A DNA stretch of 64,000 bases from Anaerolineaceae bacterium (GCA_020845515.1 JADLFQ010000018.1:5186-69185), one strand, 5' to 3'; numbered from the stretch's first letter, positions 44,155 to 64,000 are shown. Made by a program: numbers and translations. Notes: generated by a model not told the origin, from the letters alone.

Positions 44155-44165
44155 GCATTTATCAT

Positions 44166-44862: not shown

Positions 44863-44863
44863 T

Positions 44864-45019: not shown

Positions 45020-45027
45020 AGGCTTTT

Positions 45028-49027: not shown

Positions 49028-49099
49028 GATCTTCCTGCCGAGTTTGGCCAAACCTGCGCGGCCAATTGCCGCGATCAGGCTTTCAGTCGGGGAGTGAAA

Positions 49100-49981
49100 T
49101 TAATCGCGCAATGCCCTGATTTGCGAAAGGTGCGTACTTTCATGTGCGGCGAAGTAACTGACCTGCTGGCGGAGGGTTATCGTGCCGAATTCCTCATGTT
49201 TGCCTGTGCGCCACCAATCGGAGAGGGGGAGTGATTCCAGTTTGCGGAGGGTTTCCGCGCGCGAGGTGCGATAGGCCTCGAAGATGTCGTGCACTGAGGG
49301 CGGACGTTCTGTTTCGTTTTTCGCCCATGCAAAGACGGCTTTCGATTCGAGGACAGGATGCAGTTCTTTGAGGAACAAGTTGACGCGAAAATCGAGCACG
49401 CCTTGTGCGTCACGCAGATGACCCAGGGTGTTGCGTATTGCCCAACCGCCATCAGGTGGAATTCGATTCAGCGTTTCGTCGGACAACCCTTCGATGAGTT
49501 TTTCCACTACAAACGGAGTCTGGCGCAGACATTCCAACGCGGCGGGTGGTTCAAGCGCGTCGAACCAATAGTTGGGCATAAAAATTTGGAAGGTCTCCGC
49601 CCACGCGCCGCAGGCAGGACATGGCCCGGTGGGCGGGGTGAGAGTCAAATGTCCGCATATGCGGCAAACATAGGGGTGAGGCGCTGTGGTGATGAGAGGC
49701 AGTCCCCCCTGTGCGAAAGTATCCACACTCTGTTTCATGGCGGATAGCAATTCTGCGCTCACATCCAGGTGAGACAATGTCTCAATCGTTTGCCGGATAT
49801 CGGCGGTTAATTTGTCTTTGTCGGCAGGGATTTCGATGGGATAAGCAGATTGGCGGCATAACGAATCCGCTGCGGCGCGCGTTAGCTTGGCAAGATTATA
49901 TTGCCCTTCTCCTTCCAATCTTGTAGCCAGAGCGAAAAGATGTACAAGCGTGTCTTTCCAATTAGAATTATTTGCAGCCAT
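49100..49981 (-). CDS. fusion of an N-terminal helical domain and rubredoxin-like zinc ribbon with a C-terminal DinB-family domain
   Basis: CRICGH...CPACG zinc ribbon, and C-terminal ...IRNTLGHLRD...YFAAHESTHLSQI, a DinB-like His triad pattern. Confidence 0.6.
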   Translation of the reverse strand: MAANNSNWKDTLVHLFALATRLEGEGQYNLAKLTRAAADSLCRQSAYPIEIPADKDKLTADIRQTIETLSHLDVSAELLSAMKQSVDTFAQGGLPLITTAPHPYVCRICGHLTLTPPTGPCPACGAWAETFQIFMPNYWFDALEPPAALECLRQTPFVVEKLIEGLSDETLNRIPPDGGWAIRNTLGHLRDAQGVLDFRVNLFLKELHPVLESKAVFAWAKNETERPPSVHDIFEAYRTSRAETLRKLESLPLSDWWRTGKHEEFGTITLRQQVSYFAAHESTHLSQIRALRD

Positions 49982-50009
49982 ATCATTTTCTCCTGAAGAC
50001 TCTTGTAAT

Positions 50010-50077
50010 ATCCAATTGCAGGGGGCGGTTACGGGCTGGTATCAACCGGGCTGCCCGCAGGATGGCACCGGCTGGAT
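50010..50077 (-). repeat. attC-like site (weaker)
   Basis: The minus strand reads ATCCAGC-CGGTG-CCATCCTGCGGGCAGCCCGG...CCCGTAACC...TGCA-ATTGGAT. The terminal boxes are complementary (ATCCA/TGGAT) and there is an internal bulged stem CCGGTGCC/GGCAGCCCGG. It is 68 nt, like 56414-56481. Confidence 0.4.
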
Positions 50078-50084
50078 TGCATTG

Positions 50085-50657
50085 TCAGGCGGCTTTATTA
50101 TAATTTCCTTTGTGGATTTCATAGCGCAACTCGACCATGCCTGTTCCCATTTGATGAACAGATGTTAAGCGCAGGGAAGGGCTCAGCACTCTGCGAGGAA
50201 ACAGCGGTTTGCCTTTGCCAAGGGTGGCTGAACCAACCTGGACGATCAGTTCGTCCAATAATCCGGCATCGTAAAACTGGCCCGCGAGATCACCTCCGCC
50301 AACAACCCAGATGTTTCTGTCTCCGGCAGCAGCCCGCATTTCAGCATGGACATGACGCACATCTCCATTGGCGAATCGGATGTTTGCGCCTTCGATGATT
50401 GGAAGTTTGCGACTGGAGAATATCCAGGCTGGTTGAGTGTATGGCCAGGGTGAGCCAGTCTCGGCCACAACTTTTTCTGCGTTTCGCATCAACCATTCGT
50501 AGGTCGCTGATCCCATAGCCAGGGCGCCAACTTCTGATATGAATGCCGGATAGCTGGAATCACCCAGATCGCCAAGGGAGAAAAGCCATTCCAGCGAGTC
50601 GTCTTCAGTCGCGATAAATCCATCAAGGCTTGCAGCTGTGTAGTACTGAGTTTTCAT
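50085..50657 (-). CDS. dihydrofolate reductase-family protein (RibD C-terminal domain)
   Basis: MKTQYYTAASLDGFIA...VVGGGDLAGQF...DELIVQV pattern. Confidence 0.75.
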   Translation of the reverse strand: MKTQYYTAASLDGFIATEDDSLEWLFSLGDLGDSSYPAFISEVGALAMGSATYEWLMRNAEKVVAETGSPWPYTQPAWIFSSRKLPIIEGANIRFANGDVRHVHAEMRAAAGDRNIWVVGGGDLAGQFYDAGLLDELIVQVGSATLGKGKPLFPRRVLSPSLRLTSVHQMGTGMVELRYEIHKGNYNKAA

Positions 50658-50684
50658 AAATTGACCCTGACGCTCCATCGTGCC

Positions 50685-50781
50685 GCCCAACGGCTGATGT
50701 TAGCAACGGCGTAGGCGGGGGTGAAAAAATGTTTGGGAATGCTGCACGCGCCCTGCCTGTCAGATGCGTGTTTTGTCAGCC
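50685..50781 (-). repeat. attC-type recombination site
   Basis: The minus strand reads GGCTGAC-AAAAC-ACGCATC-TGACAGG...-TGCTAAC-ATCAGCC-GTTGGGC. It overlaps the last codons of ORF 50760..51086. Confidence 0.6.
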
Positions 50782-51086
50782 TGTTTTTGTTTGGGCATAA
50801 TCTTTTTTGATTTCGTGACGTCTGTTGGATAAGGTTCTTTTTGTTCAAACAAACGTAACTGCACAGGCAACCCGGAGTATTCAATTATACTATCTGGTAT
50901 TGGCAGCCTTTCAAGAGCACGTGGTTCTACTTTTACAGCACCATCACCATAAGATTTTCCAATTAAGGAAAGATTTGAAATTGTATCCGGGTGATTAAGG
51001 ATTTTCCAAAGACGTTCCATAAATTCTTTATCTTCACTCTTAGGGTAGACGCATAAGAAACCTGTAAGAGGTCTTATCTGATTCAC
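50760..51086 (-). CDS. small protein resembling the C-terminal end of N6-adenine DNA methyltransferase/type IIG enzymes
   Basis: The GTG start follows AAGGAGGAG. The motif SYGDGAVKVEPRALERLPIP resembles the ...GGG.LK.EP.ELE.LPIP tail of Eco57I/PglX-like methylases (from memory). Only 108 aa. Confidence 0.45.
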   Translation of the reverse strand: MNQIRPLTGFLCVYPKSEDKEFMERLWKILNHPDTISNLSLIGKSYGDGAVKVEPRALERLPIPDSIIEYSGLPVQLRLFEQKEPYPTDVTKSKKIMPKQKQADKTRI

Positions 51087-51174
51087 GCTCCTCCTTATCA
51101 GGGATTGGCAGTTCTGCTGACCCCTGTTTATATGTAAAATGGATACAGAAATAAATTACTGCGAGGGAATTGTG

Positions 51175-51870
51175 ATGCCTGCTGCCAAGATACTCATTAT
51201 TGATGATGAATCTTCGATTCATACCGTTCTGAGCGCCTATTTGAAGGCGGAAGGGTATGAATTCAAATCCGCTTATGATGGGATAACCGGGTTGGCTGCG
51301 GCCCGCTCTTTCAAACCGGATATCATTGTGCTGGACGTTATGCTACCCGGCATGGATGGAATTGAGCTGCTGGCTAATCTGAGGCGGGATTCGAACGTTT
51401 ATGTGATCATGCTTACTGCCCGGTCGGAAGAAACCGATAAGATTGTGGGGCTTTCGGTCGGTGCGGATGACTATCTGACCAAACCCTTCAGCCCGCGCGA
51501 ATTGGTTGCCCGCATCAAGGCAGCTCTCAGGCGCTTGCAGAACCCAACCGGGAATACTGGAGAGAATACGGTTCTTAATTTCGTGCATCTTCGCATTGAT
51601 ATTGCCGCCAGGCGGGTCTGGGTGGACGAAAATTTGATTGATTTGACCCCCGTTGAATTTGATTTGCTGGTGGTCCTCGCCCAGCATCAGAGTATGGTTC
51701 TCAGCCGCGAACAATTGTTGGAGAAGATATGGGGATACGATTATTTTGGCGATACTCGTGTGGTGGACGTCCATATCGGGCATATTCGCCAAAAACTAGG
51801 GAGTGAATGCATGATTGAAACGATTCGCGGGGTTGGTTACCGTTTTGAGGATAAGCAGGTGATGCCATGA
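51175..51870 (+). CDS. OmpR-family response regulator
   Basis: KILIIDDE...DIIVLDVMLPGMDG...KPF for the receiver, and a winged-helix C-terminus ...IETIRGVGYRF. Confidence 0.85.
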   Translation: MPAAKILIIDDESSIHTVLSAYLKAEGYEFKSAYDGITGLAAARSFKPDIIVLDVMLPGMDGIELLANLRRDSNVYVIMLTARSEETDKIVGLSVGADDYLTKPFSPRELVARIKAALRRLQNPTGNTGENTVLNFVHLRIDIAARRVWVDENLIDLTPVEFDLLVVLAQHQSMVLSREQLLEKIWGYDYFGDTRVVDVHIGHIRQKLGSECMIETIRGVGYRFEDKQVMP

Positions 51871-53012
51871 TGAAGTTTATACGTACGCATCTTGCCTGGA
51901 AGGTATTCCTTTCATATATTCTTGTCGTGCTAGTCAGTGCAGTGATTCTTATGTCCGCAGCAAGCATATCCGTCCCTGCGGCCTTTGAACGACACATGGC
52001 CAGCATGAATGCGATAATGACCAACGCAGACATGATGGGTAACAATCAGCAAATGCAATCGGAATTATTTTCGCAATATACGACGGCAGTGTATGAAGCA
52101 GTTACTTATGCAGCGCTTGCGGCTTTGATTGCAGCAATCCTGGCAAGTTTCTTCATCAGCCGCCAAGTTGTTACCCCTATGCTACGCATGATGAGCCTTA
52201 GCCACCGCATAGCGGAAGGTGAGTATGAAGAAAGGTTATCTGTGCCTGGTGGTCAACCAGCGAATCAGATTTATGAACTGGGTCAACTCGCGCTCAGTTT
52301 CAACCAGATGGCGGATAAATTGGAAAAGACAGAAACCATGCGCCGTGAACTGATTGGTGATGTTACCCACGAATTACGGGCGCCGCTCACCGCGGTCAAA
52401 GGATATCTTGAGGGGTTAATGGATGGGGTTTTACCTGCCGATCCGGAAATCTACCAGCAAATTCACGCTGAAATTGACCGGCTACAGCGGTTGGTAAATG
52501 ATTTACAAGAACTGAGCCGGGTGGAAGCCGGAGCGATTCAACTGCATCTGTCCCTTGTCTCCCCTGCAAGCCTGATCGAGAGAATTCAAAGTACTCTTGG
52601 ACGCCAATTTGAGGACAAGAACATCATTCTAGAGATAGGAGTAGAGCCAAACCTTTCCGATATCGTTGTGGATAGAGACCGGATTATCCAGGTGTTGACA
52701 AACCTGGCCGGTAATGCGCTTCGATATACACCCGGGGGAGGAAAGGTTACCCTTCAGGTTCGCCGTGAAAGGTCAGGTATGCTTTTCACTGTGAAAGATA
52801 ATGGAATAGGTATCTCCGTAGAGCAACTTCAATATGTTTTCAACCGTTTTTACCGCACTGACAAATCGCGCACAAGGGCGAGCGGTGGCGGCGGTATTGG
52901 TCTGACTATCGCCAAAGCACTCGTACAGGCTCATCAGGGGAAGATTTGGGCCGAGAGTGATGGAGAAGGGAAAGGCAGTACTTTTTCTTTCCTGATCCCT
53001 TTCCCCAAATAA
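51867..53012 (+). CDS. sensor histidine kinase (TM-HAMP-HisKA-HATPase_c)
   Basis: H-box IGDVTHELRAPLT, N box LAGNALRYT, G boxes DNGIGI and GGIGLTI. ATGA overlap with the regulator gene. Confidence 0.85.
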   Translation: MMKFIRTHLAWKVFLSYILVVLVSAVILMSAASISVPAAFERHMASMNAIMTNADMMGNNQQMQSELFSQYTTAVYEAVTYAALAALIAAILASFFISRQVVTPMLRMMSLSHRIAEGEYEERLSVPGGQPANQIYELGQLALSFNQMADKLEKTETMRRELIGDVTHELRAPLTAVKGYLEGLMDGVLPADPEIYQQIHAEIDRLQRLVNDLQELSRVEAGAIQLHLSLVSPASLIERIQSTLGRQFEDKNIILEIGVEPNLSDIVVDRDRIIQVLTNLAGNALRYTPGGGKVTLQVRRERSGMLFTVKDNGIGISVEQLQYVFNRFYRTDKSRTRASGGGGIGLTIAKALVQAHQGKIWAESDGEGKGSTFSFLIPFPK

Positions 53013-53145
53013 GGGGGGTTACTTCCCGGATTTCTTTAACGAAACTTTACAAACTCTTTAATGATGCTTCATCCTCCTGGTGTAAGATAGGCCTGCAAGT
53101 AAAAAAGACAGCTCTTGATTGGGCTCAATGAAAGGATGAAACATT

Positions 53146-53400
53146 ATGATGATGTGTCATTGGTACGGTGGTCTTGGCTGGATTGGGATGGTCATTAATC
53201 TGATACTTTCGGTTTCATTGATCATCGGCGTGGTTTTTTTGGTTATCTGGATTGTGAAGCGGTTGAGCAATAACGATGCTGCGCGAATATTTAATAATGC
53301 TGCACCGTCAGCAGTTGAAATTGCCAAGGTGCGTTACGTGAAAGGTGAGATCACCCGCGAAGAGTTTCAGAAGCTTGTTACAGATTTGGGAACAAGGTAG
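53146..53400 (+). CDS. SHOCT-domain membrane protein
   Basis: One or two TM segments, then AKVRYVKGEITREEFQKLVTDLG. Confidence 0.65.
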   Translation: MMMCHWYGGLGWIGMVINLILSVSLIIGVVFLVIWIVKRLSNNDAARIFNNAAPSAVEIAKVRYVKGEITREEFQKLVTDLGTR

Positions 53401-53407
53401 GTGAGAA

Positions 53408-53617
53408 ATGATGGGATTTGGAATGATGGGCGGCATGCTGGTCTTTTGGGTTATTGTTATTGTACTGGCAGTTTTGCTGGTGAAAGGGTTGTTCAACTCA
53501 GACGGCACGCGTTCAGAAGGCAATGCAAATACCGCAAAGCAGATCCTGGACGAAAGATATGCCAGAGGCGAGATCACCCAGGAACAATATCAGACAATGG
53601 CGAAAGATATTCGCTAA
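53408..53617 (+). CDS. SHOCT-domain membrane protein
   Basis: TM segment, then LDERYARGEITQEQYQTMAKDI. Confidence 0.65.
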   Translation: MMGFGMMGGMLVFWVIVIVLAVLLVKGLFNSDGTRSEGNANTAKQILDERYARGEITQEQYQTMAKDIR

Positions 53618-53632
53618 ATGGCTCAATTTTTG

Positions 53633-53670
53633 GAGAGCAAGGCAGTCTTACTGGATTTGCTCTCTCTTTT
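53633..53670 (+). terminator. intrinsic terminator candidate
   Basis: GAGAGCAA-16 nt-TTGCTCTC followed by TCTTTT. A related sequence (CAATTTTGGGAGAGCAAAGCC) recurs after the next gene at 54286-54306. Confidence 0.5.
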
Positions 53671-53709
53671 CGATCAAACATTAACTTTACATGCAAAGGA
53701 ACCAACTAA

Positions 53710-54279
53710 ATGAAAAAACCTTCAGGCTTGATACTCACGGCGCTGGTCATAGTTGTTGTGATTGCAGTTGCTGTTTTTCTGGTAAAAAAACCCGTTAGTC
53801 AATCGGATACCGCCTTCCTTGAAAAATATGGTTTGAGCGGACTTTCTGTAGAGGAAATGGTGCAAAAGCTTGATAGCAGTGTGTCGGACCCTTCAGCGCT
53901 CCGGGCAGGCATCACCAGCGATTATCTGATCCTCTCAGATGGTTCAAGCGAGGTCAGGGTAGCGCTGCCCAAGGATAAGTTTTACCTCTCCTTCGCACCT
54001 TATATCTCCCAAACTCATCCCTGCGGAACCCATAACCTGACCTCCTGTCAGGGTGAACTGGTCAACACGGAAATTCATACAGTCATTACCGACAAGGAAG
54101 GGAAAGAGATTGTGAATTCCAACCTGACCACCATGGCGAACGGCTTTGCAGGTGTGTGGCTGCCCCGAAATATTGATGGTACTGTGAGCGTCAGTTACAA
54201 TGGGAAAGCTGCACAGGCGCCAATTTCAACCTATGCTGGAAGCAATACCTGCCTGACGACTGCACTTCAACTTAACTGA
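53710..54279 (+). CDS. CueP-like periplasmic metal-binding protein
   Basis: Signal/TM segment, then FYLSFAPYISQTHPCGTHNLTSCQGEL, a Cys/His cluster. The family assignment is from memory of the CueP motif. Confidence 0.5.
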   Translation: MKKPSGLILTALVIVVVIAVAVFLVKKPVSQSDTAFLEKYGLSGLSVEEMVQKLDSSVSDPSALRAGITSDYLILSDGSSEVRVALPKDKFYLSFAPYISQTHPCGTHNLTSCQGELVNTEIHTVITDKEGKEIVNSNLTTMANGFAGVWLPRNIDGTVSVSYNGKAAQAPISTYAGSNTCLTTALQLN

Positions 54280-54333
54280 TGATCCAATTTTGGGAGAGCA
54301 AAGCCAATATACAGGTTTTGATCTCCCTTCCTA

Positions 54334-54678
54334 TTGTGGCATTTTTGGCTGGAAACGATGATGGCTGGAAAGATGCTGGCCTGCCTGGAGCGCAGTTTTC
54401 AGAGGGGCGAAGGAACTGCAATCAAGGGGCGTGATTTCTATGATTTGCTGTGGTTCATGCAGCAGAAAATCAGACCACTGGAGGAAAAGCTGGCCAAAGA
54501 TGGCCACCAGCCTTATACGGTTCAATCCGCGATGGAATTGCTGGGGGAAAAGATTTCTGAAATGAGGCTCTCTGACATGGCGGAGGATTTGCTGCCTTTG
54601 TTCGAACAGCGGTCTTTCATCGAAGCCTGGCTGGAAGGGTTTAAGGAGAATTTTTTGGAATACGCAAAGAATTACTAA
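54334..54678 (+). pseudogene. C-terminal fragment of an AbiEii/AbiGii-family nucleotidyltransferase toxin
   Basis: ...AGKMLACLERSFQRGEGTAIKGRDFYDLLWF... matches the conserved KxRDxYDL region. The N-terminal catalytic part is absent. Confidence 0.45.
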
Positions 54679-54868
54679 ATAAGAGGGTGATTACCTGGCA
54701 TCCCCGTTATTCCGCCCAATCTTTGGCAATGACTTCCGCCGTGATGGTTCTACTGGTCACACCGAGCGATGTGTACCAAGGGATGGCTCTGCAGCGGATC
54801 CAATCAAAGAAGTTCATCGCGCGCCTATCCTGCCAAAGCTCAATGCGCCCACCACTCAGCTCTCCGCC

Positions 54869-55018
54869 GTCCAATGGTTTGCGTCAGTGGCGGACGGGAG
54901 GCGGGGGTGGACTGCGAAGCGTGCCTGGGAGCAGAAAATGCCTGGGCGCAGAAAAAGCCCGAAAATGGCGCACGCTGAAGGCGGCAGTCCCACCCGTCAG
55001 GTGCATGCTTTGTTAGAC
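54869..55018 (-). repeat. attC-type recombination site (long form)
   Basis: The minus strand reads GTCTAAC-AAAGC-ATGCACC-TGACGGGTGGGACTGC...GCAGTCCACCC...CACTGAC-GCAAACC-ATTGGAC, with central inverted repeats. Confidence 0.6.
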
Positions 55019-55081
55019 GGCTTTTCGGCTCTCGCCAGCATCACGGCTGCTCCTTCACTTGTCCGTAGAATTCATCCTTGA

Positions 55082-55486
55082 TTATCCTATCATGAAATCA
55101 TATCCATTGAGGACTTGGTACCAAATGACCACAAAAGAGAAGGCGATGAGCATGTGCAGCACGATAAGCACCCACTGCTTGGAACGCTTTGCGAATAAAA
55201 TGTATATGAGCAGAAAAAGCATGGTTGGGTAAATCAGAACAAGAATGAGAGCTGCCAGATCTGACACCTTACCTTGCAGAATAAGGCTGGCAAATCCTCC
55301 CAGGATCGCAAACGGCCATCCAACCGCCCCCATGCCTTGCCAGAGGAGCACTTCCATCAACTCGCGAAATGTGTAGATGTGAAAGGGAGGGATAGCGAGT
55401 GGCAAAATAGTCCAGGAAAGCAGGAAATTGACGATCAGTCCTATTATTATGGATTTTGTTTTTGAATATAGTGTAGCCTTGATCAT
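55082..55486 (-). CDS. small integral membrane protein (about 4 TM)
   Basis: 134-aa hydrophobic ORF. Confidence 0.55.
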   Translation of the reverse strand: MIKATLYSKTKSIIIGLIVNFLLSWTILPLAIPPFHIYTFRELMEVLLWQGMGAVGWPFAILGGFASLILQGKVSDLAALILVLIYPTMLFLLIYILFAKRSKQWVLIVLHMLIAFSFVVIWYQVLNGYDFMIG

Positions 55487-55510
55487 ACTGCACCGTGTAA
55501 ATACCTGCCG

Positions 55511-55762
55511 CTATTTTCTTCTTTTTGCTTGATTTGAACGGATGGAAAGCCGCCCTCGAATGGCACTGCTTAAGAGTGATACACCGCCGGACGTGATTAT
55601 GAGAAAAAGGAAGGCGGAAAATAATCTCAACCACTCTCCTTGAAATGCAAAACTGAACTCTCTCACCGAGAAAAACAATCCGGCTACAACGACAAGGATT
55701 CCTAAAGTGCCGATCAAAAATCGAAAGATTGGTCCGATGGAAATCTCATGTGTCTTGAACAT
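55511..55762 (-). CDS. small integral membrane protein (2 TM)
   Basis: 83-aa ORF with two hydrophobic helices and a basic tail. Confidence 0.5.
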   Translation of the reverse strand: MFKTHEISIGPIFRFLIGTLGILVVVAGLFFSVREFSFAFQGEWLRLFSAFLFLIITSGGVSLLSSAIRGRLSIRSNQAKRRK

Positions 55763-55812
55763 AGTATTCAGTCAGCCGTCTGGCTATCAATCAGGCAGCC
55801 TGATGACGCTTC

Positions 55813-56379
55813 TTATGACGTGACGGGAACACATCTTAGGAGCACGGTGCCGGAGGAGAAGGTGCGGGTTTCAACCGGCATGAGCGGGATCTGCCGTTGA
55901 ATCTGTGAAAAGACTGACTTGCCAGAACCCAGAAGGACTGGGACATAATAGAAGCGGTATTCGTCGATCAGGCCGGCGGATGCCAAGGTCGAGGCAAGGG
56001 CGAGACCGCCGACGCCAATGGTGCTGCCTGGCTGGGCCTTCAGCCTGGCAACTTCGGCGACAGGATCGCTTCTCACGAGCCGCGAGTTCCATTGAACGCC
56101 ATCGAGGGTCGAGGAGAAAACAACTTTGAGAACCGGCTTCCAGAGCCGGGCGTATTCCACAATGAAGCTGGGCGCCGAAGGATCCTGGTCGGCCGTGGGC
56201 CAATAGCCGACCATGATTTCGTACATGCGGCGGCCGTACAGGAGGGTATCAACCTCCCGTTCAACGTCGTTGAAATGTCTATGAAGGTTCTCGTCGGGAA
56301 TGACCCAACTTGGGTCTCCGGTTGCAGCTTCGATGTAGCCATCGAGCGAGAGCGAGGTCGAGTAGACGAGTTTGCGCAC
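55813..56379 (-). CDS. dihydrofolate reductase-family protein (RibD C-terminal domain)
   Basis: The GTG start at 56379 follows CCAGGAGGACCAA. VRKLVYSTSLSLDGYI...GVGGLALAS...IDEYRFYYVP. Confidence 0.75.
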   Translation of the reverse strand: MRKLVYSTSLSLDGYIEAATGDPSWVIPDENLHRHFNDVEREVDTLLYGRRMYEIMVGYWPTADQDPSAPSFIVEYARLWKPVLKVVFSSTLDGVQWNSRLVRSDPVAEVARLKAQPGSTIGVGGLALASTLASAGLIDEYRFYYVPVLLGSGKSVFSQIQRQIPLMPVETRTFSSGTVLLRCVPVTS

Positions 56380-56413
56380 TTGGTCCTCCTGGAACGGCAA
56401 GATCCTTCAGGCT

Positions 56414-56481
56414 GCCCAACGGTGTGTGTTAGCGACGGACGGGGCGGCGGTTCCATACGTCAGGTGAACGCTTTGTTGGCT
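56414..56481 (-). repeat. attC-type recombination site
   Basis: The minus strand reads AGCCAAC-AAAGC-GTTCACC-TGACG...CGT-CGCTAAC-ACACACC-GTTGGGC. It is 68 nt and lies between two minus-strand ORFs. Confidence 0.65.
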
Positions 56482-56508
56482 GCGTTCTGATAATGAAACC
56501 TGCTCTCC

Positions 56509-57225
56509 CTAACGCCGCGCACGCAAGAGAAAATCCAGAAAATCATACGCGGTCTGCTCTCCGGCTATGTACCCTTCAATAGCCACTCCAACGAACCCCT
56601 GCCCCCAACCAGCATCCGTTACCTCCTGTACAAGCTGACCATTTATCAACAAGCTGAATTGCGCCTCCCGCCCGATGACTTCCAATTGATTGACCCCATA
56701 CGGTCGGATGGTGTCGCTGCGTGTCCATTCTACTATATTCCGCCAGCTACCTGTTTCTATGACCGAGACAGCATATTGCTGGCTATCCGTCATCCGAAAA
56801 TAATAGTAATTACGATTGTCTTGTACGCGGTAGAGCACCCCCCAACTACTGCCACCTTTACTCCCTGCGATATGTTTACAACTCACCCGCAGATGAAAAT
56901 CATCCACCGCATACCCCGTCAGCCAGGCTGTGGATATACTGGTCACGTGACTGACTTCCGCTTCCCAGCGATAACGGCCATCTGCTATCGTTTGGCTAAA
57001 CCGTGCAAAATGCTCACTGGGCTGGTTTCTCACCAACCAGTTATTCTCATTTGTAACAAATCGGTCAAACAAAAGTGTCGCCCATAGCGCCGCATCAGGA
57101 CTTTGCCGCAAGGCTTCCGGCACCACCACGGATGTGTGACAATACGGACAGTTGATAAGCGCCTTACTCCCACTAGACATCAGAGGTGCGCCACACGTTG
57201 GACATTGAAAAGAATGAGCTGTCAT
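56509..57225 (-). CDS. zinc-ribbon protein with a C-terminal beta-sandwich-like domain
   Basis: Start at MTAHSFQCPTCGAPL...CPYCH (57225). The C-terminal region is loosely similar in style to ORF 27140..28006. Confidence 0.55.
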   Translation of the reverse strand: MTAHSFQCPTCGAPLMSSGSKALINCPYCHTSVVVPEALRQSPDAALWATLLFDRFVTNENNWLVRNQPSEHFARFSQTIADGRYRWEAEVSHVTSISTAWLTGYAVDDFHLRVSCKHIAGSKGGSSWGVLYRVQDNRNYYYFRMTDSQQYAVSVIETGSWRNIVEWTRSDTIRPYGVNQLEVIGREAQFSLLINGQLVQEVTDAGWGQGFVGVAIEGYIAGEQTAYDFLDFLLRARR

Positions 57226-57336
57226 GGTTTTTCTTCTTTCGATGCAAAATTCAAATGATTTATATTTGCAGCAAGCCGTTGTTGGGCGGCTTTGTGTTGT
57301 TATAAGAATGCAATCCATCAGCAGGCGGTACGGGTA

Positions 57337-58323
57337 TCAGCGCCTCTTTTCCACTACGATCAAATCGTCGCTCCAATCTGGAATAAATAAGCAGCCAGCA
57401 TGGTAGTCCATGCTGCAAATCTTGGGGAGATTTATCTTGTATGGGTCAGTCTCCAGTGGGTTGTTCCTTTGATTAGATTCGGCGTGATGTTTCCCGACAA
57501 TGGTCGAAATCTGACGGGTAGAGTGGTCCACCATTCGCACCACATGGTTGTAGGTGTCGCCGATGAAGATGTTCCCTTCCTCATCAAGCGATATTGAAAA
57601 AGGCCCATCGAAATACTCGTCTGGATTGCTTCCTAAGGTGGCGGTGTGAGCAAGTTCCCCATCTCCTGAATATCCTGGCTCCCCAGTCCCAACCACTGTA
57701 GAAACCGTGCCTTGATTAACGTTGATCCGCCTCACGCTAAAATTCTTGCTATCCAATACATACATATTGGCGTCCGGCCCAAGACGCATATCATAAATCC
57801 AGTTAAACTGAACCGCCTCAAATGGGACGGTTTCTCCTTGAAATCCGGGATGTCCGTTCCCGAGGGTCAAAACTGGCTCGCCGGCCAAATTGAACTTCCA
57901 GACCCGACATCCCTCGATCTCGTTCACCCATATATACCCTTGCTCGTCATAGACACAGTTCCCAATGTCTTTTAAGCCAATACGTTTAGTATTGATGAAT
58001 AGCTCAGCGGACTTTTTATCTGGTCGGATTTTAAAAACCTCATTGGTACCATTGCTGGAGACAAGCAATGAACCATCGGGTAATTCGGCAATGTAGTGAG
58101 GGTATTTTGCCTCGAAAGGAATGTGATTTCGACTCAGGCCCTTATCGGCTGCGCCAGCCGTCCAGATAAACTCATCCTCAGCCGTAATGCATCCCAGCCA
58201 GTGCTCGTTATAGTCCAGAAAGTATTGTGTGCCTCTTTTGCCATGAAAACCAAATTTCACGAAGCCTTGCTCCCACGATTTGTTCTCCGTAAAGTTGAAG
58301 ATGCGCTTTATTCTCCACTCCAT
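57337..58323 (-). CDS. NHL-repeat beta-propeller protein
   Basis: GTGEPGYSGDGELA...IFIGDTYNHVVRMVD-type blades are repeated. Confidence 0.65.
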   Translation of the reverse strand: MEWRIKRIFNFTENKSWEQGFVKFGFHGKRGTQYFLDYNEHWLGCITAEDEFIWTAGAADKGLSRNHIPFEAKYPHYIAELPDGSLLVSSNGTNEVFKIRPDKKSAELFINTKRIGLKDIGNCVYDEQGYIWVNEIEGCRVWKFNLAGEPVLTLGNGHPGFQGETVPFEAVQFNWIYDMRLGPDANMYVLDSKNFSVRRINVNQGTVSTVVGTGEPGYSGDGELAHTATLGSNPDEYFDGPFSISLDEEGNIFIGDTYNHVVRMVDHSTRQISTIVGKHHAESNQRNNPLETDPYKINLPKICSMDYHAGCLFIPDWSDDLIVVEKRR

Positions 58324-58389
58324 TTTTTCAGCTCCTCAAAGCGGGTATAAACCTGGCCGCCCAACCATGTATTATTCGCTCAAAGAACC

Positions 58390-59541
58390 TCATTCTTTAT
58401 CCCTGATTATCTCCAATTTTACCAGCGGCAAAGCCGTTATTTTTTCTGTTACCGGATACACTTCATTCCCCGGATAGACGATCCAGAGCCGTTCAAGGTT
58501 TAACTCAGAAACTGCAATCCGCATCGAGGGTGTCAGCGCAGGCGCTTCATTGAACTTAACTTCCAGCCCATATCGCCTTCCTTTGTTTTGGAACACCAGG
58601 TCAATTTCCGCGCCGGCGTGTGTGCCCCAAAAATAAGCCGCAGTGGGGCGGAGAATTTGAAGCGCCTGTTCGATGGCAAAACCTTCCCAAGAAGCGCCAA
58701 CCTTGGGATGTCCCAGCAGGATGTGCCGATCAGGAATATCCAACAGGCTATGCAACAATCCCGTATCCCTGAAATAAATTTTTGGAGATTTCACCTGGCG
58801 CTTGCCCAGGTTCTCAAACCAGGGTTGGAGCTGGCGAATCATGAACGTGCCGGTCAGAATATCGAGATAAGAACGCACGGTCTTATCTGAAAGCCCCATC
58901 GAACGGCCAATCTCAGCCGCATTCCATGTTTGCCCGTGATAATGAGCCAGCATGGTCCAGAAGCGGCGCATGGTGACCGCCGGGATGTTGATCCCGAGTT
59001 GAGGAATGTCGCGTTCCAAAAAGGTGCGGATAAAGCCCTCGCGCCAGGCGAAACTGTCTACATCCGAATTGGCAAGAAAAGAACGCGGATAACCACCTCT
59101 CAGCCATAACGTTTCCAAGGTATTTATTCCTGTTTCAGACAGGTTAAACCCCTGCAGTTCAATGAATTCCAGCCTGCCTGCCAGCGTCTCGGACGCCGAT
59201 TTAACAATCTCCGGTGATGCGCTGCCCAAGACCAAGAAGTGCGCCTGATTTTCAGGGCGGTCCACCATAACCCGCAGAACCTGGAAGAGCTCCGGCATTT
59301 TTTGAATTTCATCGAGAATGACCAGCCCTTTCAGTCCGCCCAGCATCAATTCCGGATTCTGCAGCCGGCGCTGGTCAGGAAGAGACTCGATATCAAAGAA
59401 TGTGGATGGCTGATGTTCGGCGAGCTGGCGTGCCAGGGTTGTTTTTCCGCATTGGCGTGGACCTAATAAAGCGGTTACGGGTGAACGCCCAATCGCTGGT
59501 TTTAACCGGTTGAGATAGTCATCTCTCTGGATCATACCCAT
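58390..59541 (-). CDS. AAA-family ATPase with a DUF4143 C-terminal domain
   Basis: LLGPRQCGKTTLA Walker A, VILDEIQ Walker B, and a C-terminal restriction-endonuclease-like region typical of DUF4143 proteins. Confidence 0.8.
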   Translation of the reverse strand: MGMIQRDDYLNRLKPAIGRSPVTALLGPRQCGKTTLARQLAEHQPSTFFDIESLPDQRRLQNPELMLGGLKGLVILDEIQKMPELFQVLRVMVDRPENQAHFLVLGSASPEIVKSASETLAGRLEFIELQGFNLSETGINTLETLWLRGGYPRSFLANSDVDSFAWREGFIRTFLERDIPQLGINIPAVTMRRFWTMLAHYHGQTWNAAEIGRSMGLSDKTVRSYLDILTGTFMIRQLQPWFENLGKRQVKSPKIYFRDTGLLHSLLDIPDRHILLGHPKVGASWEGFAIEQALQILRPTAAYFWGTHAGAEIDLVFQNKGRRYGLEVKFNEAPALTPSMRIAVSELNLERLWIVYPGNEVYPVTEKITALPLVKLEIIRDKE

Positions 59542-59545
59542 ATTG

Positions 59546-59586
59546 TACCTTGAGATATCGGAGTTAAACTCCGATATCTCAAGGTA
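59546..59586. repeat. 41-nt perfect palindrome (20-bp arms) abutting the ATPase start codon
   Basis: TACCTTGAGATATCGGAGTT-A-AACTCCGATATCTCAAGGTA. On the minus strand its 3' arm ends 4 nt before the ATG at 59541 and contains the only SD-like AAGG. Confidence 0.9.
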
Positions 59587-59780
59587 AAGGCTTCCGGCCG
59601 CACTTTATTTTCAAAATAAAGGGGCTTTCAAATAACAAACCGCACTCTCGATCATGATTGATAAAGAGTGCGGCATGATGATGTATGGTAATGGCTATGG
59701 AAACCCGCCCCCATAATATATAGGGGTACGTCTGTCATTTTAATATCCTACGTCCCTATCTGCCGGCACCAAGTCCTGCA

Positions 59781-59845
59781 GGCCGGAACTTGTAGCCGTA
59801 CATCCGACTCGGTCCGCGCGAGAGGAGTCAAAGTAATTACCTAAC
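59781..59845. repeat. copy A of the 37-nt-core repeat family
   Basis: GGCCGGAACTTGTAGCCGTACATCCGACTCGGTCCGC, then GAGAGGAG...ACCTAAC. Confidence 0.85.
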
Positions 59846-59902
59846 GCCCGGATTCATCTGCGTTTAATTGGGACGTTAACCAATTCCAAAGCCGGATCCA
59901 TC

Positions 59903-60478
59903 CTACTCCATATTCTTAAAGGCGCGTTCCAGTAAGTCACTGACTTTGAGTTCGTTTGCCCATTTTCGCAGATAATCCAGATCAAGTTCGCCAGCCCGTG
60001 TTTTTAATACACCAAGAATGTCGCGCCACTGACGCTCCGATACCTCGCCGCCTAGGCGATACCATTCGAGTTTGGCCAGGATGATATCTTCGGGACTGGC
60101 AAATTTTACGCTGACTTCCGATTCAAAAAGGAAGGTCTGGTTTTGGGCACGGACAAGCTGGGATTGCAGAAAGGGACGCGGGTGGGGGATGAAAACATCC
60201 ACTTTGAACATGGATTCGCGATGAATAATGTTAAAACTGGAATGGCGCTGGATGGATTCGGCGATCATTTCATTGTCCATATAAAAATCATCCTGCAAAG
60301 CCAAAACAAACGGCTCGAGATGTTCAAGCCGCATTTCGGTAACGATGTCTGAATCCTGGGTAGTGCGTACCATGCCGTAAAGGGTGCTGGCAAGTGAACC
60401 GCCAATGAGATAAGGGATGCCGAGGCTTTCAAGAACATGGGTGACTTTAGCCGTGACTTCAATTGGTTCATTTTGCAT
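59903..60478 (-). CDS. nucleotidyltransferase-domain protein (MNT-like)
   Basis: Start at MQNEPIEV (60478). LIGGSLASTLYG...QDSDIV is the GS...DxD polymerase-beta-type NTase motif. Confidence 0.6.
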   Translation of the reverse strand: MQNEPIEVTAKVTHVLESLGIPYLIGGSLASTLYGMVRTTQDSDIVTEMRLEHLEPFVLALQDDFYMDNEMIAESIQRHSSFNIIHRESMFKVDVFIPHPRPFLQSQLVRAQNQTFLFESEVSVKFASPEDIILAKLEWYRLGGEVSERQWRDILGVLKTRAGELDLDYLRKWANELKVSDLLERAFKNME

Positions 60479-60725
60479 GAGGCAGCTCTCCATAGACCTT
60501 GTTTGCGATTTCTTCTCCGAGCAGTAATCCCGCCAGTCTACGCCACAATTCGGCTTCGTTGGCTTGGGGATACTGCGAACGCAACCCCGCCAGTGCAAGC
60601 AGTCTGGCCGATTGGTTGAGCTGCGCCACCATTTGCATTTTACGGGTGGGGCTGGCCTGCCGCCAAAGTTGAATTTGCAGGGCTTCCATTTTGGGGTGAG
60701 TGTCAGAGAATAAGGCGCTCATCAA
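60468..60725 (-). CDS. small helical protein, partner of the nucleotidyltransferase gene
   Basis: 85 aa. Its stop overlaps the downstream start by 11 nt (ATGCAAAATGA). Confidence 0.5.
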   Translation of the reverse strand: MMSALFSDTHPKMEALQIQLWRQASPTRKMQMVAQLNQSARLLALAGLRSQYPQANEAELWRRLAGLLLGEEIANKVYGELPHAK

Positions 60726-61021
60726 CTTCCTATCCCTTCAAAGATAATGATTTCATCCTTCCCTAACCCAAATAGATGATAAGCCAGCGCACCAGATATA
60801 TCCGATTGAGGTGTCATGATTTGATTCTACCCGGAAATGTATCCATCAGGACCTCTTGCAACTCTCCAAACCTATTTTGTTTCATAAATTGCCAGTAATC
60901 ACCCGCAGGAATTAATTATATGGTCATTAATTTGAAGATTGAAATAAAAAACGTCTTTCACATTTAGAAGGCGCTTTCTTTTCAGTAGAAAAAATGGGTC
61001 TACCGCGGCCCAATTCCAGCC

Positions 61022-61087
61022 GGCCGGAACTTATGCCCGTACACACGACTTGGTCCGCGGTGGGAGAGGTGAGAGTGACAATCTAAA
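61022..61087. repeat. copy B of the 37-nt-core repeat family
   Basis: GGCCGGAACTTATGCCCGTACACACGACTTGGTCCGC, then GGTGGGAGAGG...ATCTAAA. The TAG stop of ORF 61083..61742 lies in the ATCTAAA block. Confidence 0.85.
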
Positions 61088-61742
61088 GGTTTGCATTACC
61101 CATCAAAAACCTTCCCCCTGATTTAATGTCGTGCGCAAATCCAAAGATGAAGGTCAAGGGCAGGAGGATCACTTCGGCGGCCAGGCATCCAAGCATGATT
61201 GTGATGACGATTTCCGGATTGTTTACACCAGGCAAAAATCCGGTTGTCGCAATCGCTAGTACTATTAGCAACAGCACTGTACCCAAACCCAGAAACCACG
61301 GCCATAATTTGCCTGGCAGGGCTTGCTTACCGTCAAAAAACCTCTCCCAAAAAACCAGGGGTTTGTTGATCTGTCTTGAAACGATGTATATCCACGGAAA
61401 GAATAGAACCTGCGCCATGCCTCCGCCGACCAAAAGAAGCAGGATAAAAAGGAGCAACAAAATGATGGGGCCTTTTTTCTTATGGACATAACCGCATGAC
61501 CAGATGATGACAGTCAGTCCAACCAACATCGCCGCGATGCCGGTGATGAGGAAATTGGGGATCAGAGTGAAAGCAGGTTCATTGCCGTGAGGCCACATCT
61601 TCTGTGTTTCTCCAATTGCAGAAATGAACCGGCCGCCTGTCGGGATGTTCCCCTGGAGAGTTTCAAAGAGACCGTGGTTAATGCCCGATATTCCAAAGAT
61701 CACGCCCAATAAGGCAACGTTGATCCGTGTTGCGCGATTCAT
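61083..61742 (-). CDS. integral membrane protein (about 6 TM)
   Basis: 219-aa hydrophobic protein with a 4-nt overlap with the flavodoxin-like gene. Confidence 0.6.
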   Translation of the reverse strand: MNRATRINVALLGVIFGISGINHGLFETLQGNIPTGGRFISAIGETQKMWPHGNEPAFTLIPNFLITGIAAMLVGLTVIIWSCGYVHKKKGPIILLLLFILLLLVGGGMAQVLFFPWIYIVSRQINKPLVFWERFFDGKQALPGKLWPWFLGLGTVLLLIVLAIATTGFLPGVNNPEIVITIMLGCLAAEVILLPLTFIFGFAHDIKSGGRFLMGNANL

Positions 61743-62263
61743 TTTTTCTCTTTCTCCATCAAAAGTTCATCGGCAATCCCTTTTGCCCAGGCAACAATGT
61801 TCTCCCAATCTCGAAAGTCGCCTTCAGCAGCCTGAACCCGGTTCATCATCCATTTCTCAAGACCGTTCAATTTTTGCAGGTTCACCGCTCCGCGAAAAAC
61901 AGTAATGCTGCGCGGCTGGATCCAATCGGCGGCAGATTGCAGCCCTGATGGGAATTTCCAATCTTGCAGCAGTACTTCCAGGTCACCTTCACCGGTTGGT
62001 CCGCTGGAGAAGAGCCAGACAGGCTTTTGTGCCATATCCATCTTATTTGCTTTCAAGAATGATGCTGCTTCTTTTCGCCACATACCAATGTAGACCGCGC
62101 TGCCCAGCACCACTGCCTGGTAGCCGGTTGATTTTTTGACAGGATTCGCAGGTAAAACGTCGGTTTGCAGACCTGCCTCGCGCAATACCTGTCCAATCCT
62201 CCCGGCTATTTCTGCTGTGTTGCCGTACTTCGAAGCGAATGCTACTAAAACCTTGCCGTCCAT
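61739..62263 (-). CDS. flavodoxin-domain protein (HemG-like family)
   Basis: The start MDGKVLVAFASKYGNTAEIA follows AAGGAG. This is the flavodoxin FMN-binding N-terminus. Confidence 0.7.
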   Translation of the reverse strand: MDGKVLVAFASKYGNTAEIAGRIGQVLREAGLQTDVLPANPVKKSTGYQAVVLGSAVYIGMWRKEAASFLKANKMDMAQKPVWLFSSGPTGEGDLEVLLQDWKFPSGLQSAADWIQPRSITVFRGAVNLQKLNGLEKWMMNRVQAAEGDFRDWENIVAWAKGIADELLMEKEKK

Positions 62264-62328
62264 CTTTGCTCCTTGTTGCACAATCATCCTGAAATTTATG
62301 AGGAATTACATGCTGTGATATGCTGCAC

Positions 62329-62952
62329 CTATTTCTGAATCGAGGTGAGGTTAACTCCCAGAGCGCGGAGAACAAAATCTGCGACTGCGTCCATGTCGAG
62401 CGGTGTAACCCCATTTTCGTCTGCGGTTGACCCCACCCCGAGGTAAAACGTCATGATCATGATGGAGGTGCTTACCGGGTCAGTGGGTTGAAAAACCCCC
62501 TGCTGCATACCCGGGAGCAGGATTTCTTCACAGATGAGCTGCATCATCGGTTCATAGATCTGGCTCAGCTGTGTTTTGAACTGCCTGTTTACACCCTGCA
62601 TGGATGCAAAAAGTACCCTCGCCTGGTTGGGGTTTGCTCTTACATAATCAAAGGCCACAGCCAGGAGCCGTTTTAAGCGCAGGACATAATTATTTTCCTG
62701 ACGGATTTGTTCCGCGATATACGAACAGTGCTCCGCCCCAATCTCTCCCAGGAGGGTGAGCATGAGTTCATTTTTGCTGGGGAAGTAGTTGTAGATTGTT
62801 CCGACGGCAACACCGGCAGCCTGGGTAATGCGGTTGATACTTGCGCCTTCAAAACCCGCGCTTGCAAATTCATCTACAGCAGCTTTGAGCAAACGCTGCC
62901 GGGTTTCGTTTATCAATTTCATACGATTTTCGTTCTTGTAACGGGGTGTCAT
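62329..62952 (-). CDS. TetR/AcrR-family transcriptional regulator
   Basis: LLKAAVDEFASAGFEGASINRITQAAGVAVGTIYNYFPSK HTH. Confidence 0.85.
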   Translation of the reverse strand: MTPRYKNENRMKLINETRQRLLKAAVDEFASAGFEGASINRITQAAGVAVGTIYNYFPSKNELMLTLLGEIGAEHCSYIAEQIRQENNYVLRLKRLLAVAFDYVRANPNQARVLFASMQGVNRQFKTQLSQIYEPMMQLICEEILLPGMQQGVFQPTDPVSTSIMIMTFYLGVGSTADENGVTPLDMDAVADFVLRALGVNLTSIQK

Positions 62953-62970
62953 TTTTTGAATCCTGCAATT

Positions 62971-62996
62971 AATATGAATGAATACTCATTCATATT
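62971..62996. promoter_or_regulatory. candidate TetR operator palindrome
   Basis: AATATGAATGA-ATAC-TCATTCATATT has 11-bp perfect arms and lies 19 nt upstream of the tetR start. Confidence 0.6.
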
Positions 62997-63034
62997 ATCT
63001 AGAATTATTGAATCTGTCAAGAGGTTTTGAGAGA

Positions 63035-63067
63035 TATAAAAAACCGCTTCCCTTGTGGAAAGCGGTT
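63035..63067 (-). terminator. intrinsic terminator (minus strand)
   Basis: The minus strand reads AACCGCTTTCC-ACAA-GGGAAGCGGTT followed by TTTTTTAT. It lies downstream of copy C and upstream of the tetR operator. Confidence 0.65.
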
Positions 63068-63110
63068 CAATTGATTGCTATTTACTTGTCTTTGCTACTA
63101 CCTCATCACA

Positions 63111-63175
63111 GGCCGGAACTTATGCCCGTACACACGACTTGGTCCGCACTAGGGAGGTAAAGGTTGTTGTCTAAA
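63111..63175. repeat. copy C of the 37-nt-core repeat family
   Basis: GGCCGGAACTTATGCCCGTACACACGACTTGGTCCGC (identical to copy B over 37 nt), then ACTAGGGAGG...GTCTAAA. Confidence 0.85.
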
Positions 63176-63318
63176 GGCAAGCGTTTTCGACGGGCGGGGG
63201 ATCTGGCAGTAAAAACGACCAGTTGCCGGATCCGCCTTTAAAACTGAATCCCTGAAAGTGTGGGCTTTGCCCGCACTTGTCCAGTGCACGCGATGTTGGC
63301 TTGTTTTGCGCCAAGAAT

Positions 63319-64000
63319 TTAGGTTTGGATTTCACCTTGACCTTTTAACCCATGCATTTCAATTTCTTGCGTGACTTTGGTTAGCCACAAAAACAATGAC
63401 TCGATTTGTTTTTCTGAAAACTTTCGATTTATCAAGCACTTTAATTCTCTGCCTGCGGGCTGAAATAAACCTGAACTTTGGGCTTCTGCGTACAAAGCCT
63501 GTAATTCTTGTTCAGAGACATCTATTTTGCTCAATAAACCGCCACGTCCAACAAATGCTGAATAAATAGACTGCTGATAAACAGATTTTGGAGGATACCC
63601 AAAACAAAAAGCAACATGAGTACCAGATAGATTGACATTAAGAGAAAAACCTTTTGTACCCCAATGGATTGGAAACGAATTAGTTTTTGCCCATGCCAGT
63701 AATTTCTCAAAAATTAATTTGCCGTTGGGGTCTAAAGAATTGAAAAAGGAACTTTCAGAAATTACAGGCAATGAACCTGATGAAACTTTAGATATATTGG
63801 CAGACTCGTTTCCGACAACAATACTTGTGGATAACAACCTTAATCCACCATCGGCTTTGAAAAATGTAAATTCCAAACAAGTGATCCTTATGCCCTTATT
63901 TCGCAGAAAAGTTGATGTTTGGTGAATTTCAGGCGTAATTTTTTGACCGACAATAACGATTCTTTGGTCGTTATTGAATACAACTGCTTCATCAGAGACC
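63319..64000 (-). CDS. hypothetical protein with its 5' end outside the window
   Basis: The track starts it at the TTG at 63876, but I read the same frame open to 64000 (...VSDEAVVFNNDQRIVIVGQKITPEIHQTSTFLRNKGIRITCLEFTFFKADGG...). The gene is AT-rich. Confidence 0.55.
   Translation of the reverse strand, partial: VSDEAVVFNNDQRIVIVGQKITPEIHQTSTFLRNKGIRITCLEFTFFKADGGLRLLSTSIVVGNESANISKVSSGSLPVISESSFFNSLDPNGKLIFEKLLAWAKTNSFPIHWGTKGFSLNVNLSGTHVAFCFGYPPKSVYQQSIYSAFVGRGGLLSKIDVSEQELQALYAEAQSSGLFQPAGRELKCLINRKFSEKQIESLFLWLTKVTQEIEMHGLKGQGEIQT

Follow-up and report, generated by a model that had tools for sequence, protein, structure and literature searches.

The staphylococcal and enterococcal cassette chromosomes (SCC and ECC) are integrated by large serine recombinases (LSRs) at a site of attachment (attB) within a conserved housekeeping gene's 3' end, with ~50-bp direct repeats that contain inverted repeats and with a variable cargo (PMC6222049). 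The present work concerns a stretch of 64,000 nucleotides from an Anaerolineaceae bacterium (GCA_020845515.1 JADLFQ010000018.1:5186-69185), hereafter the window, in which a 37-nt sequence is repeated three times in the same orientation between genes that all lie on the minus strand. It is very probable that the three repeats are attachment-site junctions of an LSR-driven site-specific recombination that stacks modules behind the 3' end of an OB-fold gene. The closest analogue would be the SCC/ECC composite islands, i.e., a stacking like that found behind orfX in staphylococci.

SCC composite islands contain several elements in tandem, and pseudo-SCC elements are devoid of ccr genes. The Anaerolineae loci have in common with SCC and ECC an LSR, a putative attB in the 3' end of a conserved gene, direct repeats, which in the best sites contain inverted repeats, and a variable cargo. 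They differ from SCC on the following points: (i) the target is an OB_ChsH2_C / zf-ChsH2 gene beside a thiolase gene, not rlmH (orfX); (ii) the enzyme is a single non-Ccr LSR, not a CcrAB pair; (iii) the LSR gene extends across its own att site; (iv) the modules go down to 1.2-1.4 kb and one of them is an integron; (v) the host phylum is Chloroflexota. To our knowledge, an SCC-like arrangement is known only in staphylococci and enterococci. The same logic would thus be extended to Chloroflexota, with the integron itself as cargo of another site-specific system.

The serine integrases (phiC31, Bxb1, SPbeta, skin element) use att sites of ~40-50 bp, with an imperfect dyad and a central non-palindromic dinucleotide, located within or at the end of genes. 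Large serine integrases are unidirectional unless a directionality factor is present (PMC12286644, PMC11722253). The short att site and the integration at a gene end are found again in Anaerolineae, and the imperfect dyad in the best sites; however, many junctions are there in tandem, most of them beside modules without a recombinase gene, and the C-terminus of the LSR is altered by the integrated state. Some genomic islands regenerate a tRNA or protein gene at its 3' end, SGI1 (Salmonella genomic island 1) at trmE being one of them. In Islander-type islands integration splits the target, the element restores it and the displaced fragment is located at the far end (PMC4383910). A target split and restored and a displaced fragment are common features, but these islands depend on tyrosine integrases and are usually one or few and large, whereas an LSR and many kb-sized modules are found here.

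Integron arrays are also made of small, mostly single-function modules in one orientation on a fixed platform, and true integron parts are embedded in the present loci. On the contrary, it is the sequence of the repeat that is conserved and not a structure, both of its strands are coding and its logic is double-stranded; the recombinase is a serine and not a tyrosine recombinase; and each insertion would duplicate ~23 or more bp of the target. No prior description was found in the literature on integrons with DUF35, on integrons in Anaerolineae or on LSRs in Chloroflexi.

The repeat is the 3' end of two genes

The exact 37-mer GGCCGGAACTTATGCCCGTACACACGACTTGGTCCGC is present on the plus strand at 61022-61058 (copy B) and 63111-63147 (copy C), as an earlier note made from the window alone had reported; none of 100 shuffles matched it. 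The third copy of that note (copy A, 59781-59817, six positions changed) is also found, and repeat finding in the window places A, B and C in one family (D1) that spans ~66 nt. Positions are numbered p1-p37 along the plus strand of the 37-mer and the numbering is carried on into the flanks.

Relatives were sought by a pattern scan of reference genomes and by a metagenome scan with a looser pattern. The core was found in three Anaerolineaceae metagenome-assembled genomes (MAGs) among the reference genomes and in 77 metagenome loci, i.e., 80 loci (designated by L numbers), all apparently of Anaerolineae type. Both strands of the repeat are coding in 85 related copies, taken from genomes and metagenomes of Anaerolineae. 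The variation between copies hits every third base: p3 and p24 can be any of the four bases, while p6, p9, p12, p18 and p30 undergo almost only transitions.

The minus strand is translated as ...G-P-S-R-[M/V]-Y-G-Y-K-F-R-P, after which 2-7 variable residues precede a stop. By a profile search, the related loci give many partial copies that have only p1-22 in common and then continue differently. They are the ends of a gene of 130-150 amino acids, ...IGMPVEMVTRKIRxDGDERGMIVYGYKFRP plus a tail, which Pfam assigns to OB_ChsH2_C + zf-ChsH2 (formerly DUF35) and which adjoins a thiolase gene. Since all partial copies end this real gene, the left part of the core is its 3' end: on the minus strand, p1-23, with a short tail that varies, make up the last codons (YGYKFRP...stop) of a DUF35/ChsH2-type Zn-ribbon OB-fold gene. 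Full-length OB-fold genes that end with ...YGYKFRP and a tail exactly at the left part of the core are present in at least 14 loci. In longer assemblies, this gene closes an operon of the mevalonate pathway (3-hydroxy-3-methylglutaryl-coenzyme A (HMG-CoA) reductase / HMG-CoA synthase / thiolase).

The tail after FRP goes with the downstream module and not with the OB-fold gene. A ...GLG..[KR] tail is found on every ATPase module, behind a gene end or a displaced copy alike. Among the 120 closest OB-fold homologues (at least 74% identity), YGYKFRP is present in all 120, with 74 different tails. The hypervariable C-terminal tail of the OB-fold protein would be explained by a gene end that is a recombination target with module-borne tails.

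For the plus strand, all open reading frames (ORFs) of the related loci were compared with serine-recombinase queries. LSRs of ~555 amino acids (Resolvase + Recombinase + Zn_ribbon_recom domains) are encoded in L006, L017, L022, L052 and L059. Their genes are on the plus strand (window orientation), read across the core and stop at p62-64, i.e., p2-64 are the last 20 codons and the stop of the LSR. The C-terminus is ...QVPMVGTYTRTYDLVRGGELRVLI followed by the stop in the L006 enzyme and ...IQSVGICTRTFDSVRRGEVKIVV followed by the stop in that of L052, the two being just 52% identical overall. In 57 of the 71 unique displaced copies, the LSR frame runs for exactly 20 codons before its stop. Two blocks that the earlier note had pointed out to the right of the core, one purine-rich and GGAGG-like, the other YCTAA(A/C)G, are aligned in 3/3 copies of the window and can be explained in this way: the first is the LSR codons Gly-Gly-Glu and the second is the last LSR codon plus TAA, TAG or TGA. 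The third-base variability of p38-64 is likewise the wobble of the LSR frame. Among the candidates of that note, a recombination site for an enzyme it could not name is the correct one, the 3' end of an LSR being encoded across the repeat.

The LSR gene adjoins the site in L006, L017, L022, L052, L059, L085, L086 and L087. In L085 (5.4-Mb contig) and L086 (1.47-Mb contig), it converges on the OB-fold gene with an overlap of ~90 nt that coincides exactly with the core. Beyond this overlap come the genes for thiolase, HMG-CoA synthase and HMG-CoA reductase, and the element behind the LSR carries UvrD, RadC, ArdC-like and helix-turn-helix (HTH) genes. Small HTH_17 proteins are encoded in the elements and are candidate directionality factors. 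The C-terminus of the LSR is different when it overlaps the OB-fold gene (...VGTYTRTPASPVRRHRTAACG and stop), while the L087 gene runs into the canonical arm (...VETYTRIYDSVRGGEVKVVV and stop). The family is large, with more than 600 homologues at E <= 1e-30, the named ones being from Anaerolineales or Chloroflexota. The NCBIfam models for CcrA/B/C give 39-48 bits for the LSR, far under their cut-offs of 700-900, thus it is not a Ccr.

Tandem arrays and architecture of the site

L003, L016, L010, L088 and L066 each contain a copy at the gene end together with displaced ones that are oriented alike, i.e., direct repeats bound inserted DNA. In L003 the gene end is at 6453 and the displaced copies are at 5321 and 764; in L016 the gene end and four displaced copies make five sites within 6.7 kb. 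In L088, from a 4.87-Mb contig, the OB-fold gene that closes the operon has four further copies behind it within 10 kb, at 12.7, 15.1 (partial), 19.0 and 20.1 kb. The modules between copies have 1.1-4 kb and an unrelated cargo (hydrolases, DUF4143 ATPases, short-chain dehydrogenase, regulators).

Flank clustering shows that one right flank is paired with different left flanks, and vice versa. The alleles at p3/p6/p9 are linked to the left flank and those at p23-24 to the right flank. Pairs with a common right flank differ consistently at p3 and p6 only. In the single pair with a common left flank (L005, L067), the rare p3, p6 and p9 alleles follow the left flank and the divergence starts from p23 on.

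Tails derived from the LSR 3' end (e.g. GCGGACCAAGTCC) are inverted repeats of p26-37 (GACTTGGTCCGC). The best dyads have 15-16 complementary pairs out of 28, with the centre after p10 (T|T) and a half-site of ~27 bp; copy B ties for the top score (16/28) with L006 and L017. In most sites the left half is not palindromic. Since the dyad centre falls after p10, the central dinucleotide is TT. An exchange at p10/11 would fit both the dyad and the flank data, the latter giving few informative pairs (12 and 1).

The following scheme is proposed. In the chromosome of Anaerolineae, attB would be the 3' end of the DUF35/ChsH2-type OB-fold gene of the mevalonate operon. A matching site would be brought by mobile modules, with tail - core - arm as plus-strand order, and p1-23 with the tail would restore the last codons and the stop of the OB-fold gene on the minus strand. 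As p2-64 encode the last 20 LSR residues and the stop, the LSR gene would span its own attP. The site would be an imperfect palindrome of ~54 bp, with strand exchange most likely at the central TT (p10/p11) of AACTTATA. At each integration one copy would stay at the gene end and one would be displaced, so that successive events would build a tandem array of modules. Most modules, having no recombinase gene, would be moved in trans or be fossils. One module type would be a complete integron (intI, attI, cassettes and last attC). The OB-fold gene 3' end and the tail-core-arm site would form a natural att pair for a large and diverse LSR family; such pairs may be useful in genome engineering and for the definition of island boundaries in Chloroflexota MAGs.

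Three other features were observed at these sites. In L016:2440-2490 and L068:1857-1936, copies are broken between p12 and p13 by G+C-rich, hairpin-forming insertions of ~27-50 nt (CGCCCCTTCGGGCG...), which may be a tiny insertion element aimed at the site. In L089 (10367-10391 and 13609-13629), a second copy of the OB-fold gene 3' end, with ~40 nt from the gene side, is present beyond an nrdD-nrdG pair; this insertion differs from the LSR-type junctions because the duplication takes in the gene side. In L086:12141-17307, ~5 kb of small unrelated genes (AIM24, nitroreductase, PD-(D/E)XK nuclease, ICMT) part the OB-fold gene from the thiolase gene, unlike other genomes where the two are adjacent. 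Insertions may thus have a second hotspot here, on the 5' side.

The three sites of the window

The window contains three candidate att junctions and two complete modules. The parts of the three sites, read by translation for the tails, are as follows.

59756-59780, minus strand: tail A, OB-fold frame ...P-AGLGAGR-stop; its plus strand would be a remnant of the LSR 3' codons (P-type half-site)
59781-59817: core copy A, putative att-site centre, six differences from B and C
59818-59844, plus strand: arm A, remaining LSR C-terminal codons ..VRARGVKVIT, TAA at 59842-59844
61000-61021, minus strand: tail B, OB-fold frame P-AGIGPR-stop; its plus strand gives STAAQFQP, resembling STAVQIQS of LSR
61022-61058: core copy B, attP-like, with its flanks among the three best dyads (16/28 pairs, centre after p10)
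61059-61088, plus strand: arm B, LSR C-terminal codons whose frame is shifted by an insertion of 1 nt
63041-63068, minus strand: intrinsic terminator after tail C, 12 pairs and a T-run
63098-63110, minus strand: tail C, OB-fold frame P-VMR-stop, of the commonest 'PVM' class, which resembles native gene ends
63111-63147: core copy C, identical to copy B
63148-63174, plus strand: arm C, LSR C-terminal codons ..VRTREVKVVV, TAA at 63172-63174

In the LSR frame, copy A is translated as AGTCSRTSDSVRARGVKVIT and copy C as AGTYARTHDLVRTREVKVVV, both followed by a stop, and copy B has one extra base that shifts the frame. Left of this copy, the plus-strand frame gives STAAQFQPAGTY, which resembles STAVQIQSVGTY of the L086 enzyme. 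The CTA in arm B doubles as the stop codon of ORF 61083-61742. The inverted flanks of copy B (60999-61011 / 61052-61064) and the TACCTC/GAGGTA around copy C are present as the earlier note had it, and the minus-strand terminator that it placed left of copy C is real (63068-63041); in most copies elsewhere a hairpin is found at the same place after the tail. The sharing of GCCGGATCC by A and C also holds, though in copy C it is located at 63225-63233 and not at 63226-63234. The flanks had been considered unrelated outside these blocks: this is right for the left flanks and wrong for the right flank of copy C, an attC of ~135 nt homologous to the attC of L010.

No LSR gene was found inside the window, nor was the OB-fold gene found inside the 64 kb. 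The OB-fold gene and any LSR of this locus would lie past position 64000.

Relation to the integron

In L010, an integron integrase of 331 amino acids (E = 7e-95 to IntI1; Phage_int_SAM_4 + Phage_integrase) is located between the gene-end copy and the displaced copy. The order in this module is tail - terminator - intI - attI - one cassette - attC - arm. Six other loci have fragments of intI at the equivalent position. In this clade, attI (..TAG|TTRGSY) is located 5' of intI and bears no relation to the repeat, and no copy of the repeat was found in the 10-kb cassette arrays beside the closest IntI proteins (L081-L084). For these two reasons, the integron is considered as one type of cargo module and the repeat is not an attC. 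Two features of the window correspond to it.

63169-63303, minus strand: integron attC of ~135 nt, homologous to the attC abutting the repeat in L010; it follows the cassette ORF 63319-63876
59839-59900: attC-like remnant, starting with ACCTAAC (GTTAGGT on the minus strand) and containing GCCGGATCC, with a weak alignment to the L010 attC

Because 63169-63303 matches the L010 attC, copy C marks where an integron module ends distally, ORF 63319-63876 being the last cassette of this module. The segment 59839-59900 appears to be the distal end of an integron-derived module too, as a weaker remnant than that at copy C. That an attC abuts arm C and an attC-like remnant abuts arm A follows from one module type being a whole integron. 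The earlier note had found the YCTAA(A/C)G block R'-box-like on the minus strand. At A and C this YCTAA is the LSR stop codon, so the remark fails in this respect; yet an attC-type sequence starts there, a true attC in copy C and a remnant in copy A, and its R' end falls on the same block, and to that extent the remark stands. An integron carried as cargo bears on how integrons travel between chromosomes.

Imperfect palindromes of attC type (GCCCAAC...GTTGGC, families D2 and D4) are observed between minus-strand genes of the window at 50683-50790, 54900-55013 and 56403-56475, with perhaps a further one at 47625-47659. That ending at 55013 (GTTAGAC) seems to be oppositely oriented. No 37-nt core lies beside the attC-type palindromes of 47-56 kb.

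Other observations concern the integron-bearing loci. A reverse transcriptase/maturase of a group II intron (RVT_N, RVT_1, Intron_maturas2) is encoded at L081:6031-7594, in an integron cassette array of Anaerolineales, the cassettes being on the other strand; group IIC introns that target attC have the same arrangement. The palindrome TATTATACAGC-N6-GCTGTATAA is common to the attI/promoter regions of L010 (1290-1400) and of L081-L084 (5' of intI), between intI and the crossover, and may be a putative repressor (LexA-like) box. A second tyrosine recombinase (Phage_integrase, 316 amino acids) is found at L071:12282-13232 and L017:7887-8837, with 96% identity. In L071 it is ~700 nt from the leftmost repeat copy seen, the only one of that locus, and in L017 the LSR-containing segment of ~7 kb is between it and the repeat. 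This recombinase was set aside as a candidate, having no general association with the repeat.

Weighing of the explanations

Several points weigh against the stacking of modules by an LSR: (i) the LSR and OB-fold genes are both outside the window, and the link would come from the identity with related loci; (ii) a clearly palindromic, attP-like left half is present in a minority of sites only; (iii) most sites have a 'PVM' tail and a terminator, and the standard rules of LSRs do not obviously let these recombine; (iv) serial insertion is hard to explain since integration destroys attB; (v) part of the reassortment could come from homologous recombination between repeats of 37-60 bp; (vi) the mapping of the crossover uses the few informative pairs mentioned above; (vii) recombination activity is predicted from sequence.

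An improbable explanation is that the sites are fossils. An LSR would have made the first junctions, and only homologous recombination or gene conversion would now reassort modules that are decayed and non-mobile. Such a history would agree with the scarcity of recombinases, most modules being devoid of one, full-length LSR genes being present in only 5 of ~80 loci and intI being mostly in fragments. The frameshift in the arm of copy B, the stops in the LSR frame or the small insertions in the core of several copies, and the identity of the B and C cores with different arms, which suggests gene conversion, go in the same direction. However, the frame of 20 codons with a stop at the same position is kept in those 57 of 71 copies even without an adjacent LSR gene, and the points of flank exchange are compatible with one position, p10/11. 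With 37-60 bp, the repeats are also short for RecA-dependent exchange to be efficient.

It is much less probable that the repeat is a substrate of the integron integrase, as a second attC class (a candidate of the earlier note) or as an attI-like site. Although intI or its remnants adjoin the core in L010, L014, L016, L020, L051, L064 and L073, attC sequences abut the arms of copies A and C and some sites fold as a hairpin of 12-17 bp with ATCTAC/GTTAGAT-like ends, no hairpin or other structure is conserved among copies, and the ATPase modules have the repeat without any attC. The arrays of L081-L084, beside the closest IntI, have no repeat, and the attI of the clade (TAG|TTRGSY), on the 5' side of intI, is unlike it. 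The flanks reassort inside the repeat, i.e., the module boundaries are within the core and not at the G|TT of the R' box. The variant in which the repeat would be the right flank of attI or a 5' leader of cassettes for IntI was rejected on the repeat-free related arrays, the boundaries in the core and the LSR frame.

Even less credible is an element transcribed from the minus strand, in which a mini-ORF (M/V-YGYKFRP...) and a terminator would act as a leader-peptide attenuator or an insulator for each module. An ATG (58) or GTG (10) is indeed found at one codon in 68 of 69 unique copies, followed by an ORF of 10-15 codons (11-15 when counted from the start codon to the stop) and, 10-40 nt further on, by a terminator-type hairpin. 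The same codons are nevertheless the end of the OB-fold gene, where the start position is V or I; the terminator is explained as the end of the OB-fold operon, and the distance from stop to hairpin varies and is too long for ribosome-dependent attenuation. The mini-ORF or leader peptide that the 3-nt periodicity had suggested was dropped, as full-length genes end in the same codons. A structured RNA or 3'-untranslated-region element, also proposed in the earlier note, receives no support: Rfam gives nothing at gathering thresholds, a permissive search gives chance-level matches elsewhere in the region, and no covarying structure is seen. Each copy folds no better than shuffled sequence on either strand (z from -0.2 to +2.1), and essentially no pairs come out of the consensus folding (alifold) of 67 copies, at -1.4 and -3.8 kcal/mol.

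The ends of a miniature inverted-repeat transposable element or of an insertion sequence, with terminal inverted repeats and target-site duplications, do not correspond to what is found, since the cargo flanks are unrelated and the conserved segment is gene-coding on both strands, although no systematic search for target-site duplications was made. Inspection by eye showed no motif in support of a sigma-54 promoter, of a dif/Xer site or of group II intron ends. The conserved repeat is thus explained as a junction of an LSR system, and should not be annotated as an attC class or as an RNA.

A wider proposal is more doubtful. Anaerolineae might have a second cassette system, based on a serine recombinase, alongside or above integrons, with kb-sized modules and even a whole integron shuffled at the end of a gene of an essential pathway. 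The recombinase gene would be split by its own attP, so that integration would swap the last ~14-20 residues of the LSR, and this might be a switch of activity or directionality. The 'PVM' tails might regenerate an attB-like site for serial capture.

Gene content of the window

The modules next to the three sites are listed below.

58390-59541, minus strand: AAA_14/DUF4143 ATPase gene (Pfam matches), module left of copy A
59903-60725, minus strand: module between A and B, two overlapping ORFs (59903-60598 and 60468-60725)
61083-63020, minus strand: module between B and C, with a TetR-family regulator (62329-62952), a flavodoxin (61739-62287) and a membrane protein (61083-61742)

The DUF4143 ATPase module type also follows a repeat copy in L003, L016 and L010 (left-flank cluster 52). 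The family search gave no match for ORFs 59903-60598 and 60468-60725. The module between B and C has its own promoter-like site at 63020-62992. Within 62960-63020, just 5' of the TetR gene, the palindrome ATATGAATGAGTATTCATTCATAT comes after a TTGACA-17-TAATAT promoter-like site and is probably the operator of that gene. A perfect palindrome of 20+20 nt (TACCTTGAGATATCGGAGTT/AACTCCGATATCTCAAGGTA, 59546-59586) overlaps or directly precedes the start of the listed ATPase ORF (59541) and may be a putative operator; the homologous ATPase of L003 has a different palindrome at the equivalent upstream spot (570-606).

On a larger scale, the G+C content falls from ~0.60 to ~0.48 at roughly 44 kb. The low-G+C stretch 44000-64000 is an accessory mosaic with DinB_2, RibD_C (twice), CAAX protease, phosphoenolpyruvate (PEP) mutase and CueP, as well as a two-component system encoded on the other strand. 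The whole stretch resembles a single long accretion zone, and the three repeats mark the right-hand part of it alone. In the high-G+C part, a single minus-strand ORF of 3759 codons occupies 30740-42019.

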